Shown here one piece after another: positions 1,540 to 6,364 of a stretch of DNA of 25,763 nucleotides. The DNA is taken from IMG/VR virus record IMGVR_UViG_2778261381_000004, positions 1-25,763 of that record; one strand, 5' to 3'. The notes under the pieces were generated by a model. That model did no database searches, was not told the DNA's origin, and was given only the letters and a program-made list of their open reading frames with translations. A program made the position numbers and the translations under genes. Numbering within the stretch: position 1 is the stretch's first letter; every line of letters starts with the position of its first letter. The stretch comes from a virus. Lineage: Duplodnaviria > Heunggongvirae > Uroviricota > Caudoviricetes.

Positions 1540-2289
1540 TTAATTAGATAGGGGATCAATAAACCGCCGTGCTTCTTCCAGTTCTTCTGGAAAGTGGGCG
1601 GAAATAAGGCGCTCTGGAACGATTTCCATTAGCCAGATAGCGGAGAAAATTGCGCGTATGCGCTTACTGCGAGGGATGGTGCGCAAACGCTCCAGAATCC
1701 ACTCAAAATAGCTTTCCTGAATCGGGTTGAACTGCATGTCTCCCATATGCTTAAAGCTAACCAGAGAGTCATCCAGACGGGTTGTTGCGCGTCTGGCTAA
1801 TTTCTCTTCAAATATCTCAATCAGTTCTGGCTGCCACAAATGCTGTGGGCGAGGCAGCTTGTCCCACAGACGTCGTGCAGCTGCGGAAAGAACAGTGGAG
1901 ATAAAGTAGTCGTATGAGCAGCAATAGCGATCCGCAAACTGGCGTGCTTTCCATAGCGACGTTTTATTAGCAGTCGACAACTCCTGATAAGGCAAGCGTT
2001 TTAACCCGGTGGTGAACGGAGCTGTTTCAAAGTGTTCACGACCGTGCGTCAGCATGATATTTGAGTACTGACGTTTGTATGCCTCCGTAAACAGACAGGT
2101 GGCCATGAGAGGATGCATATCGCGGTAATCAAACCACTTCGTCTCAAACAGTTCAGCCTCGTCTTTGCAGCGCGACAAACCAATGTTTTCAGCAACCCAC
2201 TTGTCCATAACAGCGGTATTCCACTCTGTCATGAAGTCGTACTGGTCGTTGTCGATGGTATCGAAAAAGATTTGGCTCATGTGGCTCAC
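1540..2289 (-). CDS. Hypothetical protein
   Basis: 249 aa ORF with an AGGTGA Shine-Dalgarno about 6 nt before the ATG at 2289. No family motif recognised. Its position next to the helicase suggests a replication-associated role, but that is inference only. Confidence 0.5.
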   Translation of the reverse strand: MSHMSQIFFDTIDNDQYDFMTEWNTAVMDKWVAENIGLSRCKDEAELFETKWFDYRDMHPLMATCLFTEAYKRQYSNIMLTHGREHFETAPFTTGLKRLPYQELSTANKTSLWKARQFADRYCCSYDYFISTVLSAAARRLWDKLPRPQHLWQPELIEIFEEKLARRATTRLDDSLVSFKHMGDMQFNPIQESYFEWILERLRTIPRSKRIRAIFSAIWLMEIVPERLISAHFPEELEEARRFIDPLSN

Positions 2290-2394: not shown

Positions 2395-2453
2395 GACCTG
2401 CTTCTGTATATACAAATAATAAGTAACTTATTAAATACATACGGAAGCAGGTC
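2395..2453. repeat. Long imperfect palindrome downstream of the KAP NTPase gene
   Basis: Seen in sequence: GACCTGCTTC (2395-2404) pairs with GAAGCAGGTC (2444-2453); the 39-nt AT-rich spacer contains GTATATAC and AATAAGTAACTTATT sub-palindromes. Confidence 0.45.
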
Positions 2454-2461
2454 ATAATCTA

Positions 2462-4168
2462 TTAATGATTGAGTATTTTATTAACACGCAGCTTATTAAG
2501 TGTTGATTTTGAAGCAACTTCCTCCAAAGCTTCTATTGCTTTATCAGTGATGCTCTTCTGTTCGTCTGTCGGGTGTTGCATACCCTTGAACTTGAGCATA
2601 GTCTCTTCTACTAAATTCAAAGCATCCTGATCACAGGATAATATCCAGTTTACGTAATCATCTTTAGAAAAACTGTTAAGAATATTCACATCACTATGGT
2701 TAAATCTTCCACCAGCTATTTTTTTTATAATTTTATCTAAGTTATAGTCATCTGGATTTCTATCTTTCAATTTTTTTTCAATTCTGAAACCTAATTCTTC
2801 ATTTCCGAAGATCTCTACTCGCAAAGAATTAAATGTAGCATACGCATTGTCTTTATTAACAAAAGCATCTGCATATGCCTCTATAATATTATTACAATCT
2901 CTATCCAATTTGATTAGGACATTTATTAAACCTACGAACTGTCCAATTGGTATACGCAACAGACTATCGTTAATTACGCGCTCAATTTGAAAAATAAACT
3001 CTGATTCATTATCTTTAAAAGAGTTTCTAAAAACATCCCAAATTTTATAAACCTCACATAAAACCCTATTATCTCTATATTGTTCATTTTTTTCTTTTAT
3101 TATATTTAGAATATTGCTTTCAGAAGACACATAACCGTTCTTAAGGTAAAAATCTATATCATCATCGAAAGCACTTTCTGCTCGTTCATAAATAATATCA
3201 AGGCTATTAACAAATGAATATACAGAGTTAACTTCTTCCTTTTCATCTTTATCATCTAACATATAGTCGAATGCATGTATATTTTTGATTGACTCCTTAA
3301 ATGAAGCATAATCAACGCTAGGAACACCAAAATAGTAAACCACTGAAAATAAGACCAATCTATTAATAAAACTTTCTCTAACCTTATCCTCTGCTAACTT
3401 TAGCACATCTCTAAATATAACTAGAGATGATTTTATTTTATTTAATATTCTAATGTTTTTGATGTTTAAATCATTTGCTAGGTTTTTTAACAAAAGAAAA
3501 TCAGGGTCAGTCTCATAAAAAACTTTTCTTAAGTTTTTCTCAGGCGTGGGATCGTATTTTATTTCCACATCAATTATTTTTTCTCTATACTCTAAAAACT
3601 GTTGTTGTGCAGTTTCTTCATGTAAGTTATCTTCATTTAATATTAGAACAACCTTGCAATTTTTTCTTCTTGCCAACTCATCAATTACCCCCATAATCTC
3701 TTTAATTTCTAGCGCACTACCTTTTCGTTCAATATCATCAATGCAAACCAAATAATTATTAACAAATTTATACTCAAGAGATGACAGCAGATTATCAGTT
3801 TTGAACCCAAAAAAATCGTTCTTTCCAAAATGTATTAAAAATTTTGACAAGGAGTTGTATTTCAACCATCCCCAAAACCCATTTCTATAACGAATCATAG
3901 TTCGATCCGTTTCAGATAAAATCAGTTCTTTATATTTCTTTTCATTAATTGGTGTGGCACAATGATAAAGAGCTTTTTTAATGTCTCCAATAGAATTTAT
4001 TCCAAACAAAGAAACATATGAATATGCATTAAAATCTAATTTTTTAGAATGTTTAGTATAAAAGCTATTCCAATAATGCGTTTTACCTACTCCCCAATTT
4101 CCTTTTATGACAGCAACCCGATGATCTGAGTCCAAAAAATTTTTTAAAAATACTTCTATCGATTCCAT
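2462..4168 (-). CDS. KAP-family P-loop NTPase, candidate accessory (moron) or defence gene
   Basis: 568 aa ORF. Walker A GNWGVGKT near the N-terminus and Walker B LVCIDDIER match the KAP NTPase signatures (G-x-W-G-x-G-K-S/T and hhhhDD-x-R). The gene is visibly far more AT-rich than its neighbours. No transmembrane segment is obvious. Confidence 0.6.
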   Translation of the reverse strand: MESIEVFLKNFLDSDHRVAVIKGNWGVGKTHYWNSFYTKHSKKLDFNAYSYVSLFGINSIGDIKKALYHCATPINEKKYKELILSETDRTMIRYRNGFWGWLKYNSLSKFLIHFGKNDFFGFKTDNLLSSLEYKFVNNYLVCIDDIERKGSALEIKEIMGVIDELARRKNCKVVLILNEDNLHEETAQQQFLEYREKIIDVEIKYDPTPEKNLRKVFYETDPDFLLLKNLANDLNIKNIRILNKIKSSLVIFRDVLKLAEDKVRESFINRLVLFSVVYYFGVPSVDYASFKESIKNIHAFDYMLDDKDEKEEVNSVYSFVNSLDIIYERAESAFDDDIDFYLKNGYVSSESNILNIIKEKNEQYRDNRVLCEVYKIWDVFRNSFKDNESEFIFQIERVINDSLLRIPIGQFVGLINVLIKLDRDCNNIIEAYADAFVNKDNAYATFNSLRVEIFGNEELGFRIEKKLKDRNPDDYNLDKIIKKIAGGRFNHSDVNILNSFSKDDYVNWILSCDQDALNLVEETMLKFKGMQHPTDEQKSITDKAIEALEEVASKSTLNKLRVNKILNH

Positions 4169-4190
4169 TGGTGTCTATCCTTCAACTCAT

Positions 4191-4217
4191 ATATTGGGCG
4201 TAACAAACGCCCAATAT
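4191..4217 (-). promoter_or_regulatory. Stem-loop between the ParG-like gene and the KAP NTPase gene
   Basis: Seen in sequence: perfect 10-bp inverted repeat ATATTGGGCG (4191-4200) / CGCCCAATAT (4208-4217) with a 7-nt loop. No U-tract follows on the coding strand, so it is not a canonical terminator. Confidence 0.4.
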
Positions 4218-4219
4218 AA

Positions 4220-4579
4220 TCACCCTTTCTTCATCAACTCGCGTTTAATTTCATCGGTACGCATCGTGACATCGGCAGCTGTGATCGCCTCGTTAAGTTT
4301 CACGATGTCCTCGATTTCCTGCGGTGTCTTCTCCGCAAGATGGAAAATAGCAGCACGAATCACGTCAGAACGAGTGAACTTCTCGAAGCGAGGGATGAAC
4401 TTCATCATCTCCAGCAGTTCGAAGTATTCGTCCTCCAGTGACATTGTGCGGCTTTTAATTTTCTCTTTGCCACGAGTCGGGCGTCCCTGTGGTCTGACTG
4501 GTTGGCGCAAAGGAGTTGTGTTCTTAGCCGGTGCATCAGGCTCTTTGCGCTTTGCTAGGTCACCCATTTTCATGGACAT
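4220..4579 (-). CDS. Small partition protein, ParG-like centromere-binding protein (possible ribbon-helix-helix)
   Basis: 119 aa ORF whose start overlaps the parA stop. Basic, Pro-rich N-terminal tail followed by a short structured C-terminal region. Function assigned mainly from its position directly after a small ParA, as in type Ib partition systems. Confidence 0.5.
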   Translation of the reverse strand: MSMKMGDLAKRKEPDAPAKNTTPLRQPVRPQGRPTRGKEKIKSRTMSLEDEYFELLEMMKFIPRFEKFTRSDVIRAAIFHLAEKTPQEIEDIVKLNEAITAADVTMRTDEIKRELMKKG

Positions 4580-5247
4580 TATTCTTCTTCCTCCAGACTC
4601 AACAGATAATCTACAAATTCTTCAAACTCGGCTTCCGCCTTTTTGTCGCGCTCGCTACCGGTCATTTCAAAGATAGAACGACCAGACTCTTCCGCATCAT
4701 CATAGACGTTGCGGTTATATAGATTGACTGGCGCAGACTCGATGCCAAACGTCTCAACAATCTCTTTAGCCGCCAGAATGCGAGACACTTGTGATGGCAA
4801 AGCCGGGCACTGGTTCATGACCGCGCGGACCTTCACTTTATCGTTTACATTACGAACATTGTCGATAATAGGATCGATGTCACGCAGAGATTTCAAATCA
4901 CGACGCTTAGGACGAAGCGGGATAATGATAACGTCGGCCATCAGCATCGCTTGTCGCTGAATTTCGGAGTCAAAGCCACCAGCATCTACCACTACAAACT
5001 CAGCTCTACCCTGAAGCGATTTTAGGTGCTTAATGATGTCATCCTGAACGTATGCAAAAGGAATCAGCTCAAGGTCTTCGTTCTGTCGACGGTCTTCACA
5101 CCAGCTTGTTGTCGTGCGCTGAATATCTATATCAGTGATATAAACCTTCTTCTTCTTTTTGACTTTCAGGCAAACGGCAATTTGCTGGGCAACGGTGGAT
5201 TTGCCAGGCCCGCCCTTTGTGCCGCCAACCACAAAGATCTTGGTCAT
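4579..5247 (-). CDS. parA: ParA-family partition ATPase, small type Ib (ParF-like)
   Basis: 222 aa ORF. Deviant Walker A GGTKGGPGKST (KGGxxK[ST]) close to the N-terminus. Size and lack of an N-terminal HTH fit type Ib ParA. Confidence 0.8.
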   Translation of the reverse strand: MTKIFVVGGTKGGPGKSTVAQQIAVCLKVKKKKKVYITDIDIQRTTTSWCEDRRQNEDLELIPFAYVQDDIIKHLKSLQGRAEFVVVDAGGFDSEIQRQAMLMADVIIIPLRPKRRDLKSLRDIDPIIDNVRNVNDKVKVRAVMNQCPALPSQVSRILAAKEIVETFGIESAPVNLYNRNVYDDAEESGRSIFEMTGSERDKKAEAEFEEFVDYLLSLEEEE

Positions 5248-5299: not shown

Positions 5300-5490
5300 A
5301 TATGTGATATAGCCTAAATGCCTACGGCTACGGTGTAAAGGTTAAATGGTAGGTTGTGGTTAACAATTGGCAATCATAGCTTGTATTTGTCTGTTGAAAA
5401 AAGTAACAATGACCTCTATATTACAAGTACGGTGATATGCCGTACACAATTTGATAATGCACACGTAATGGGCTATAGCCTTTTAAAGTA
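5300..5490. promoter_or_regulatory. Divergent control region between parA and the toxin-antitoxin operon (candidate centromere/operator repeats and promoter)
   Basis: Seen in sequence: tandem CTACGGCTACGG (5322-5333); TACGGTG at 5329-5335 and again at 5428-5434; inverted repeat GTACGG (5427-5432) / CCGTAC (5440-5445); perfect palindrome GGCTATAGCC (5471-5480) overlapping a sigma70-like -35 TTGATA (5451-5456), 17-bp spacer, -10 TATAGC (5474-5479). Confidence 0.35.
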
Positions 5491-5565
5491 ATTTTTGAGT
5501 CGAAAACTCAGTTTGAACAGAGGAGATTGATGGCCTTCCTACATCACGGCCATCAGGAGGAATAC

Positions 5566-5835
5566 ATGTCAGCACTAAAAAAGCAGCGCATCGATTTGAG
5601 ATTAACCGATGACGATAAAAGCATCATCGAGGAAGCTGCCGCAATGTCTAACCAGAGCATTACTCAGTTTATGGTTAGCAGTGCATCTGAACGTGCCGTG
5701 AAAGTTATAGAGCAACACCGTAGACTAGTTCTGAATGAAGAATCCTGGAATCTGGTTATGGACGCTATAAGCAATCCTCCGGCACCGAACGACAAGCTGA
5801 AACGAGCTGCTGATCGTCTGAAAAGCATGGAGTAG
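5566..5835 (+). CDS. DUF1778 (TacA/AtaR-like) antitoxin
   Basis: 89 aa from the ATG at 5566, which has a GGAGG 5 nt upstream; the longer ORF from 5527 lacks a well-placed RBS. Sequence RIDLRLTDDDKSIIEEAAA...FMV...RLVLNEESWNLVMDAISNPPAPN resembles antitoxins that pair with GNAT toxins. Confidence 0.8.
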   Translation: MSALKKQRIDLRLTDDDKSIIEEAAAMSNQSITQFMVSSASERAVKVIEQHRRLVLNEESWNLVMDAISNPPAPNDKLKRAADRLKSME

Positions 5836-5842
5836 TTTACTC

Positions 5843-6364
5843 GTGAGCAATACAACGATAGAGATTTTCTCTGGAGAGAAAGATTATGATCTAAACGGTT
5901 TTGATTGCGGCGAAGAGTCACTAAACGCCTTTTTAGCCAACCACTTAAAAAGGCAGCATGAGGGAAAAATTCTTCGTGCTTATGTGCTTTGCACTCAAGA
6001 AGAAAGGCCAAAAGTGTTAGGATATTACACTTTGTCAGGTAGTTGTTTTGAAAAGGAGTCCTTACCTTCAAGAAGCAAACAAAAGAAGGTTCCTTATCGG
6101 AATGTTCCAAGTGTTACTTTGGGTAGGCTGGCTTTGGACAAGTCCCTTCAAGGTCAAGGATTTGGCTCAATGCTTGTAACACATGCAATGCGCGTTGTGT
6201 ACAATGCATCTCTTGCTGTAGGCATTCATGGACTTTTCGTTGAGGCGTTAAATGACAAAGCCAAGGCGTTTTATAAAAGTTTAGGCTTTATCCAGCTGGT
6301 TGGTAACAACGAGCGTTCTTTGTTCTATCCTACAAAATCTATCGAAAAATTGTTCGAAGAATAA
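5843..6364 (+). CDS. GNAT-family acetyltransferase toxin (TacT/AtaT-like)
   Basis: 173 aa with a GTG start 8 nt after the antitoxin stop. FDCGEESLNAFL and TLGRLALDKSLQGQGFGSMLV match the conserved motifs of tRNA-acetylating GNAT toxins. Confidence 0.8.
   Translation: MSNTTIEIFSGEKDYDLNGFDCGEESLNAFLANHLKRQHEGKILRAYVLCTQEERPKVLGYYTLSGSCFEKESLPSRSKQKKVPYRNVPSVTLGRLALDKSLQGQGFGSMLVTHAMRVVYNASLAVGIHGLFVEALNDKAKAFYKSLGFIQLVGNNERSLFYPTKSIEKLFEE

Follow-up and report, generated by a model that had tools for sequence, protein, structure and literature searches.

Genes and signals at the cargo slot

The window, by which we mean the whole 25,763-nt stretch of DNA that was analyzed, is an E. coli SSU5-like phage-plasmid. 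Junction alignments with sister plasmids delimit an exchangeable cargo cassette within it, occupied here by a gene for a KAP-like NTPase. The features of this region and the parts of the encoded protein are listed by their positions in the window.

1540..2289, minus strand: conserved backbone gene of PHROG 2500 (unknown function), flanking the slot on the replication-module side
2395..2453, minus strand: backbone terminator hairpin followed by UUUU (-28.3 kcal/mol, z -7.2); right border of the slot
2454..4219, minus strand: exchangeable cargo cassette
2462..4168, minus strand: gene for a soluble KAP-like P-loop NTPase, ATG start, 568 aa; PHROG 4740; related to the PADLOC candidate PDC-S49
2465..3136, minus strand: family-specific all-helical C-terminal domain (aa ~345-568)
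3395..4117, minus strand: NTPase core and helical lid, aa 18-258; the fold is AAA+/STAND-like
3725..3751, minus strand: Walker B, LVCIDDIER (aa 140-148; D144, D145, E147, R148)
3794..3877, minus strand: aromatic-rich, low-confidence insert separating the two Walker motifs (aa 98-125; pLDDT <50, no hydrophobic span)
4079..4102, minus strand: Walker A, GNWGVGKT (aa 23-30; G23, W25, G26, G28, K29, T30)
4190..4218, minus strand: cassette-specific hairpin right after the stop codon of the 119-aa gene (-20.4 kcal/mol, z -4.1; no U-tract)
4220..4579, minus strand: ParA partner gene, 119 aa, PHROG 5111 (unknown function), a putative centromere-binding protein; the slot is bordered on the left by its stop codon
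4579..5247, minus strand: small ParA/MipZ-type partition ATPase, 222 aa (Pfam MipZ, AAA_31 and CbiA; phrog_164, "ParA-like partition protein")
5346..5400, minus strand: sigma-70-like promoter matches ahead of parA, the closest ones upstream of the KAP gene on its strand (consensus scan only, 9/12 matches)

Sister plasmids that carry different cargo cease to be similar at the stop codon of the 119-aa gene (4220-4222) and become similar again at the terminator hairpin, which is retained with every cargo in elements of E. coli, Salmonella, and Klebsiella. The ParA-type ATPase gene, at its stop codon, shares 1 nt with the 119-aa gene, which ends 51 nt ahead of the KAP ATG. A preliminary description of this DNA had placed the KAP gene 51 nt after a ParG-like gene; the gap is as it said, while the ParG-like label was not confirmed by sequence (no Pfam match, nothing meaningful in a PDB sequence search, PHROG 5111 only) and rests on the position of the gene after a small ParA.

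The consensus scan returned no sigma-70-like site on the minus strand between 4168 and 5346. With no promoter-like site between the genes, co-transcription of the KAP gene with the partition operon is plausible, and any read-through transcription into the cargo may start at the matches at 5346..5400. The hairpin at 4190..4218 differs with each cargo type and may act as a partial terminator or an RNA-stabilizing element; lying between the operon and the KAP gene, it could block this read-through. Neither an Rfam nor a tRNA scan, run over the whole window, gave a match.

As the preliminary description had stated, positions 2462-4168 hold an ORF of 568 aa, here on the minus strand, and this gene is more AT-rich than its flanks. 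Its GC content is 0.295 (GC3, 0.239), and that of the remainder of the window is 0.476; when GC was computed in 500-nt windows, all in-gene windows had values of at most 0.324, whereas the lowest value elsewhere was 0.38 (z about -5). KAP homologues are AT-rich in all hosts checked, with GC contents of 0.27 vs. 0.45 for the flanks in Pragia, 0.41 vs. 0.55 in Pseudomonas, 0.30 vs. 0.50 in Salmonella, and 0.31 vs. 0.48 in Klebsiella. Low GC is thus a trait of the whole family and does not date the acquisition, and the family is also found at this slot in more than one genus. Of the recent horizontal acquisition originally proposed, the horizontal exchange of the cargo stands and its recency, which had been read from the low GC, does not. 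We take the plus-strand ORFs at 3475-3696 and 3546-3755, which lie within the KAP gene, to be by-products of its AT-richness.

The KAP NTPase and its C-terminal domain

A profile search confirmed the assignment to the KAP family of P-loop NTPases: Pfam PF07693 (KAP_NTPase) matched aa 18-258 over model positions 22-282 of 293 with 26.0 bits, above the curated gathering threshold of 20 (E 6.6e-6), and is precomputed for nearly all homologues. The protein is nonetheless a weak, divergent member of the family, scoring 26 bits where PifA reaches 148. It matches phrog_4740 with an E of 2e-165; an NCBIfam search with it returned no family, and PDB sequence searches with the protein and with the family profile returned nothing meaningful. 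Both Walker motifs named in the preliminary description were located, and their residues are invariant or nearly so in an alignment of 52 homologues, in which N178 is also nearly invariant and R195, R240, and other polar residues are invariant.

We modeled the protein with AF2 from the 52-sequence alignment (pLDDT 85), having discarded a single-sequence version (pLDDT 45.6). The model is all helical from aa ~209 to 566 and thus predicts that a long alpha-helical region follows the NTPase, as in the KAP family. The earlier impression that the protein has neither a transmembrane segment nor a nuclease domain proved correct: the top 19-residue hydropathy is 1.6, inside a helical bundle, and no nuclease, protease, TIR, or membrane domain was recognizable in the 568 aa, nor was a DNA-binding domain. 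The insert at aa 98-125 is polar and aromatic and occupies the position at which membrane-anchored relatives carry transmembrane helices. For lack of a transmembrane segment we rejected a membrane-anchored KAP or a Tmn-like pore; such helices are not universal among KAP NTPases, because PifA is also without them (PMC13001434). The combination of a STAND-type NTPase profile above threshold, a repeat-type sensor, and an N-terminal effector was not found either.

The preliminary description had suggested that the C-terminal ~400 aa could be a new domain. We place the end of the NTPase and lid at about aa 260; aa 260-345 are common to PDC-S49, and aa ~345-568 are specific to the family. This last part has no Pfam, PADLOC, or PDB match and no similar solved structure, so that the suggestion holds for a shorter region, which other proteins also possess. 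When the C-terminal 229 aa served as the query of a word-indexed search, only fragments of the same gene were recovered, while an exhaustive search with a profile of the C-terminal domain recovered 1,581 cluster representatives (at least 1,000 clusters at 50% identity), and all full-length proteins among the 150 representatives listed share the same architecture. Between alleles A and B, identity is 50-65% in the C-terminal domain and 85-100% in the N-terminal part; the C-terminal third is mosaic and the most divergent module between alleles. We regard aa ~345-568 as a putative specificity or sensor domain. Alleles A and B and those of Salmonella and Klebsiella form a natural series with a mosaic C-terminal domain, which is suited to tests of phage recognition by effector-less KAP NTPases.

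The view that KAP NTPases are poorly characterized in defense no longer applies, since PifA, QatA, and the EF_KAP class have been described as defense proteins (PMC13552941, PMC13001434, PMC13279940). The best PADLOC match of the 568-aa protein was PDC-S49 (models PDLC05029-05031; E 2e-21), over profile positions 8-346 of 624 only. PDC-S49 is matched by all 52 aligned homologues and by 10 more distant members, with the same partial pattern in all 62. Shared with PDC-S49 are an N-terminal NTPase and helical linker of about 350-420 aa, a total length of ~570-620 aa, and a stand-alone gene; the last ~200 of the 624 model positions, however, are never matched by our family. This pattern in the sequences indicates that the 568-aa family is a sister clade of PDC-S49 with a different C-terminus. 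We found no mention of PDC-S49 in the literature searched, and it is a computational candidate only.

PifA, responsible for T7 exclusion by the F plasmid, is likewise a plasmid-borne single KAP NTPase with no transmembrane helices and a long helical C-terminal region (PMC13001434), and it is encoded near plasmid maintenance genes. Judged by these shared properties, PifA is the closest functional analogue of the 568-aa protein. It differs in being a strong KAP member of 741 aa whose operon also encodes the repressor PifC, and hhalign aligned only the Walker A-Walker B core of the two proteins, with 44% probability. No PADLOC match of the query to the PifA, QatA, or tmn models was reported at E up to 1, and only one of the 52 homologues matched the PifA model (E 2.4e-4).

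EF_KAP and metagenomic KAP proteins defend against phages with a single NTPase and an uncharacterized C-terminal region; EF_KAP-type defense depends on Walker B as well as on the C-terminal regions, which are diverse (PMC13552941). With this class our protein has in common a KAP NTPase joined to a C-terminal region without a structural match (PMC13552941), but EF_KAP has predicted transmembrane helices, and the proteins of this class, compared by description only, come from Firmicutes, where they are linked to serine recombinases. QatA is also a KAP NTPase, forms 7-8mers, and binds ssDNA and dsDNA (PMC13279940), but it belongs to the four-gene operon QatABCD; no qatBCD genes lie near our KAP gene, the neighbors of which are partition and replication genes. 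Tmn, of the YobI family, resembles our protein as a single-gene P-loop NTPase defense; it senses phage RIIB, and ATP turnover is part of its antiviral effect. It differs in having two transmembrane helices within its P-loop domain and in forming a membrane pore.

Alternative occupants of the slot

The backbone region of the window is shared by 653 PLSDB plasmids. In sister plasmids the slot is occupied by PD-T4-3, a GIY-YIG protein (E 1e-23; gene on 135 PLSDB plasmids), by PD-T7-5 (E 1e-139; on 11), by a DUF2971 protein (PDC-S31; on 26), or by a 352-aa protein without known function (on 138). Occupants of the PD-T4-3 and PD-T7-5 types were originally isolated as anti-phage systems (PMC10952713), and the Aristaios system, which has been validated, has DUF2971 as its domain (PMC11381338). 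KAP alleles 39-42% identical to ours are present at the same slot in Salmonella and Klebsiella phage-plasmids. With fixed borders in a conserved backbone and known defense genes as alternative cargo, the slot is a defense hotspot. A DefenseFinder survey of phage-plasmids reported PD-T4-3 and PD-T7-5 in some such elements and described neither a common insertion slot nor the KAP family of the 568-aa protein (10.1101/2025.09.12.675607).

Clinical E. coli, Shigella, Salmonella, and Klebsiella commonly carry SSU5-like phage-plasmids, and a fixed slot with interchangeable defense cargo explains part of the variation in accessory genes among these elements. The slot also offers a cheap route to nominating new defense genes, in this case the KAP family and the 352-aa protein.

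Function of the KAP gene

By analogy with the alternative cargo, the KAP gene is probably a single-gene anti-phage (or superinfection-exclusion) cargo in a defense hotspot downstream of the parA-partner operon. We consider this role the most likely because sister plasmids carry proven anti-phage genes in this slot, and the genomic context strongly favors it. In the plasmid state of lysogeny, read-through from the partition operon, across the hairpin that has no U-tract, would give low-level KAP expression. The C-terminal domain may then recognize a protein of the infecting phage, as PifA does with T7 proteins and Tmn with RIIB, and recognition would switch the NTPase to an oligomeric, NTP-hydrolyzing state. 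Since no nuclease, protease, TIR, or membrane domain accompanies it, the NTPase itself would be antiviral, by NTP-driven sequestration or remodeling of a phage target and/or by nucleotide consumption, and the lysogen and its resident phage-plasmid would be protected. The killing or blocking step is conjecture. Against an anti-phage role count the partial coverage of the PDC-S49 match, the lack of reported PADLOC matches to PifA, QatA, or tmn, and the setting of most chromosomal homologues sampled, described below. More tentatively, the ~570-aa soluble family could be a distinct single-protein immune sensor-effector with a mechanism unlike that of PifA or Tmn, the slot an undescribed defense hotspot whose cargo is expressed via the partition operon, and the 352-aa occupant a further new defense gene; NTP-driven capture or remodeling of a phage replication or assembly complex is one possibility for how such a sensor-effector might work.

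It is unlikely that the KAP NTPase is instead a module for competition between elements that excludes or destabilizes incoming plasmids, phage-plasmids, or conjugative elements. Its gene is carried by a phage-plasmid and adjoins maintenance genes, and the phage-plasmid survey proposes that such elements use their defense cargos to compete with other mobile elements (10.1101/2025.09.12.675607). The DNA binding of QatA noted above is in keeping with such a role, as is the similarity of the predicted fold to the DNA-engaging AAA+ proteins ORC/Cdc6, TnsC, and MuB. That similarity, however, lies in the generic NTPase core only (TM-scores of ~0.2-0.28), the protein has no recognizable DNA-binding domain, and other occupants of the slot were isolated for their action against phages. 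Another reading is an accessory role in maintenance or replication, as an ORC/Cdc6-like loader or initiator working with the adjacent DnaB helicase and primase or as an NTPase assisting the ParA system. We did not find the combination expected of an ORC/Cdc6-type protein, namely, an AAA+ core with a winged-helix DNA-binding domain and a gene essential for the replicon; the gene is dispensable in sibling plasmids, for which reason we rejected a replication initiator or loader and, in view also of the solitary nature of the homologues, a partition accessory. No conserved partner gene was found beside KAP homologues, the neighbors of which differ in the nine distinct contexts examined. An accessory role in maintenance or replication is very improbable. 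A counter-defense or host-manipulating moron, which would aid establishment or replication of the phage-plasmid in hosts with certain immune systems without protecting the host, is improbable as well. Phage-plasmids of the SSU5-like group do carry anti-defense genes such as Rad (10.1101/2025.09.12.675607), and variable, AT-rich, fast-evolving cargo is typical of anti-defense and defense genes alike, but a 568-aa protein with a conserved NTPase is more like defense sensor NTPases than like known small anti-defense proteins, the alternative occupants are defense genes, and the closest profile matches are PADLOC defense-candidate models.

The rarity of the KAP gene, which is carried by only 28 of 5,426 complete E. 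coli genomes, would fit hitch-hiking cargo, an insertion that is neutral or decaying and at present does nothing for the element. This is scarcely credible given the state of the gene, which is intact and under purifying selection: the reading frame is uninterrupted in all alleles, and dN/dS between alleles is 0.22 for the whole gene and does not exceed 0.30 in any segment. Across the 52 aligned sequences, with identity to the query down to ~28%, 35 columns are invariant, and the family is large (964 close matches to the 568-aa protein, besides the representatives of its C-terminal domain). Synonymous divergence is higher in the KAP cargo (dS 0.58) than in backbone genes (0.04-0.13). The chromosomal homologues sampled are mostly lone genes among housekeeping genes, outside recognizable multi-system defense islands, and two KAP homologues, both in Pseudomonas prophages, adjoin the S24 repressor in the immunity region, a position in favor of an anti-phage role.

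The KAP gene and its surroundings

The open reading frame at 2462..4168 lies on the minus strand, starts with ATG and encodes a 568-aa KAP-like protein in which both previously claimed Walker motifs were found (GNWGVGKT, aa 23-30; LVCIDDIER, aa 140-148). As described earlier, the gene ahead of it ends 51 nt before its ATG. The local features are as follows.

4579..5247 (-): ParA/MipZ-type ATPase gene, 222 aa, upstream of the KAP gene on the same strand
4220..4579 (-): 119-aa gene, overlapping the ParA-type gene by one base; PHROG 5111 (unknown function)
4190-4218: perfect 12-bp hairpin in the 51-nt gap, -20.4 kcal/mol, without a U-tract
2462..4168 (-): KAP gene
2395-2453: long hairpin followed by UUUU, -28.3 kcal/mol, z -7.2

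For the sequence of the 119-aa gene, no Pfam or PDB relative was found and PHROG 5111 was the only match; the label "ParG-like" is therefore one drawn from its position after ParA. The equivalent gene of phage Cyrano (L003:3661-4020) is annotated as a "RelE/ParE putative toxin", for which we found no support: there is no Pfam match, and the gene overlaps the parA end (by 1 nt here), like a partition partner. In SSU5 (L004:3726-5062), three additional small ORFs (136, 214 and 96 aa) lie between parA and a DUF2971 gene; the 96-aa ORF weakly resembles the C-terminus of the 119-aa protein, and both give the same faint HEC-02B match.

Windowed GC calculation bore out the reported AT-richness. The KAP gene has a GC content of 0.295 (GC3 0.239) vs. 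0.476 in the rest of the 25.8-kb window, and all 500-nt windows inside the gene were at or below 0.324, with none outside below 0.38. Family genes were AT-richer than their own flanks in every host checked (5/5: Pragia, 0.27 vs. 0.45; Oleispira, 0.35 vs. 0.40; Pseudomonas, 0.41 vs. 0.55; Salmonella, 0.30 vs. 0.50; Klebsiella, 0.31 vs. 0.48). Low GC is thus a mark of mobile cargo, and the proposed horizontal acquisition stands in that sense, but "recent" was an overstatement, because a trait of the whole family cannot date the event.

Among 5,426 complete E. coli genomes, 28 carry the KAP gene, in every case on a plasmid (~110-160 kb for those listed) and in none on the chromosome. Seven have allele A, the type in the window (at least 99% identical), and 21 have allele B (~83% nucleotide and 77% amino acid identity). 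Allele B proteins are named from Shigella sonnei, and one of them, P0007, occurs on 928 contigs, the longest ~139 kb.

On the strand of the KAP gene, the first sigma-70-like matches met going upstream from the ATG lie ahead of parA, at 5346-5400. The hairpin at 4190-4218 is followed by an AGGA ribosome-binding site, and the hairpin at this position differs by cargo type, each cargo bringing its own. The simplest reading of the sequence is that the KAP gene would be expressed by attenuated read-through from the partition operon.

A cargo slot behind the partition operon

The site is a sharply bounded defence-cargo hotspot that follows the partition operon in SSU5-like phage-plasmids, and its recognition is what this analysis adds. 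In junction alignments, the stop codon of the 119-aa gene is the exact point where plasmids with different cargo lose similarity; similarity returns at the hairpin at 2395-2453, which is kept regardless of cargo and across elements of E. coli, Salmonella and Klebsiella.

Occupants of the slot (window 2454-4219 or equivalent); numbers are PLSDB plasmids with the cargo gene, slot position not being confirmed plasmid by plasmid
KAP gene, alleles A and B (the window): 23
DUF2971 protein (pECOH89, Cyrano, SSU5), PADLOC PDC-S31, E 1e-40: 26
255-aa GIY-YIG protein, opposite strand, PD-T4-3, E 1e-23: 135
390-aa protein, in tandem with DUF2971, PD-T7-5, E 1e-139: 11
352-aa protein, opposite strand, without a Pfam or PADLOC match: 138

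PD-T4-3 and PD-T7-5 were reportedly recovered by Vassallo et al. in an E. coli functional selection. DUF2971, which is ART-like, is the domain found in Aristaios, a validated abortive-infection system. PMC10952713 credits both PD systems to Vassallo et al. 2022. Salmonella and Klebsiella KAP alleles (42% and 39% identical, respectively) sit at exactly the slot position in SSU5-like elements. Synonymous divergence between elements with alleles A and B was 0.58 in the cargo vs. 0.04-0.13 in flanking backbone genes, a difference which indicates that cargo turns over by recombination in a stable backbone.

In plasmid pYLPM7a (L018:1239-3197), the PD-T7-5 (390 aa) and DUF2971/PDC-S31 genes lie in tandem, so the slot can stack cargo. 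The gene for the 352-aa protein, at L016:1331-2386 (+) in plasmid pKFS-D30_2 (CP125006.1), is by location a candidate new defence gene; its 138 plasmids are from Klebsiella (64), Salmonella (32), Escherichia (27), Citrobacter (9) and others. A DefenseFinder survey recorded no defence system in pWPMR2-like S. sonnei phage-plasmids (10.1101/2025.09.12.675607). Some elements reported as defence-less may hold a KAP gene in the slot, a possibility raised by the S. sonnei naming of allele B proteins.

Family assignment and domain structure

The profile search upheld the KAP assignment: Pfam KAP_NTPase scored 26 bits (cut-off 20) over nearly the whole model. Since F-plasmid PifA scores 148 bits, the 568-aa protein is a divergent member. 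The sole PADLOC system matched was the candidate PDC-S49 (E 2e-21), with no match reported for PifA, QatA or tmn at E up to 1. We rejected membership in PifA, QatA, Tmn or STAND and place the protein as a divergent KAP, sister of PDC-S49. PHROG 4740 (unknown function) matched it full-length, and an NCBIfam search returned nothing. A word-indexed protein search gave 964 relatives, the best 120 of which are nearly all 560-620 aa with ~99% of the query aligned. In a 52-sequence alignment, the invariant residues include G23, W25, G26, G28, K29, T30, D144, D145, E147, R148, R195, N238, R240, W508, N558 and R561, and N178 is nearly invariant; the protein is therefore likely to be an active, probably oligomerisation-dependent NTPase.

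AlphaFold2 with the same alignment gave a confident model (pLDDT 85, pTM 0.67), disordered only at aa 98-125, a stretch flanked by the two Walker motifs. No hydrophobic span was found anywhere in the protein, in agreement with the claimed absence of a transmembrane segment and in contrast to Tmn/YobI NTPases, which carry a pair of transmembrane helices inside their P-loop domain. PDC-S49 models align to aa 3-347 only (profile positions 8-346 of 624), and this partial alignment recurs in 52/52 homologues and 10 more distant members. When 1.84 billion cluster representatives were searched exhaustively with a profile built from aa 340-568, 1,581 proteins matched at E ≤1e-3 (1,062 at E ≤1e-10). 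Full-length matches among the best 150 were all 540-610 aa with the domain C-terminal, with no sign of the domain in other architectures; the domain is therefore dedicated to the family, not unique to this gene. The size and uniqueness of the C-terminal domain proposed earlier were overstated, given the reach of PDC-S49 and the many relatives.

Alleles A and B are 85-100% identical over aa 1-350 and 50-65% over aa 350-568. Both dN and dS rise in the C-terminal third (dS 0.9-1.0 vs. 0.14-0.64 elsewhere), and no segment has a dN/dS above 0.30. By these comparisons, the C-terminal third is a recombinational mosaic under purifying selection, as expected of an exchangeable specificity module.

Possible function and related loci

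The preliminary description, broadly right apart from "recent" and its account of the unknown domain, also overstated how new KAP NTPases are to defence. Published work describes phage protection by single proteins in which a KAP NTPase is joined to an uncharacterised C-terminal region; Walker B and that region are both required, and at least one of these proteins is non-abortive (PMC13552941). PifA of the F plasmid, a KAP that lacks transmembrane helices, acts against T7 by abortive infection, in which the membrane depolarises and nucleotides leak (PMC13001434). QatA, also a KAP, is oligomeric and binds DNA (PMC13279940), and for Tmn, published work reports recognition of phage RIIB and use of ATP turnover. 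The KAP gene joins this already known kind, single KAP NTPase defence, as a new, putative member. Alongside the observed domain layout, conservation pattern and genomic context, we infer, by analogy at every step, a mechanism in which the variable C-terminal domain would bind a phage protein, binding would drive NTP-dependent oligomerisation, and the NTPase itself would block infection by sequestering or remodelling its target and/or consuming nucleotides.

A replication or partition role was rejected, as the KAP gene is freely replaced in siblings with parA and dnaB ~99% identical. Competition between elements, counter-defence and neutral hitch-hiking of the gene are each possible, at lower probability than phage defence.

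No conserved neighbour gene and no enrichment in multi-system defence islands was seen across the homologue loci examined. Two Pseudomonas prophage copies lie between the early-gene cluster and an S24-family repressor, as is typical of accessory (moron) genes in prophages; an Oleispira homologue adjoins an IS66 element, and others are lone low-GC genes amid housekeeping genes. These contexts fit a self-sufficient single-gene system. The prophage homologues (L008:10001-12507 and L019:8001-10506; 31-33% identical) are directly beside the S24-peptidase (CI/LexA-type) repressor, in the same position in two different strains. A chromosomal homologue in Pseudomonas frederiksbergensis (L020:10238-11616) adjoins a divergent ParA/CbiA-type ATPase gene and a small ORF, a likeness to the partition-operon neighbourhood that could be chance or a mobile-element remnant.

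The first 8 kb of the window match E. coli SSU5-like phage-plasmids (Cyrano, 98.8%; CMS-2020a; SSU5, 82%), and plasmid pTIC (MF554642.1) is 100% identical over the 2-kb region around the KAP gene. Flanking genes include a DnaB-like helicase, a lysis cassette and tail-fibre genes. Bases 1-113 are 96-100% identical to IS911/IS3-family sequence in Shigella and Salmonella phages, which places the start of the window within, or at the border of, an insertion sequence adjacent to the helicase gene. A second variable site, 5527-6364 (+), separates the lysis cassette from the parA promoter region; in the window it encodes a TacA-like antitoxin (Pfam TacA1, E 9e-26) and a TacT/KacT-like GNAT toxin. At this site pTIC carries aac(6')-Ib-cr, and two hypothetical genes (257 and 139 aa) without a PADLOC match are present in pECOH89 and pGMI17-003_2.
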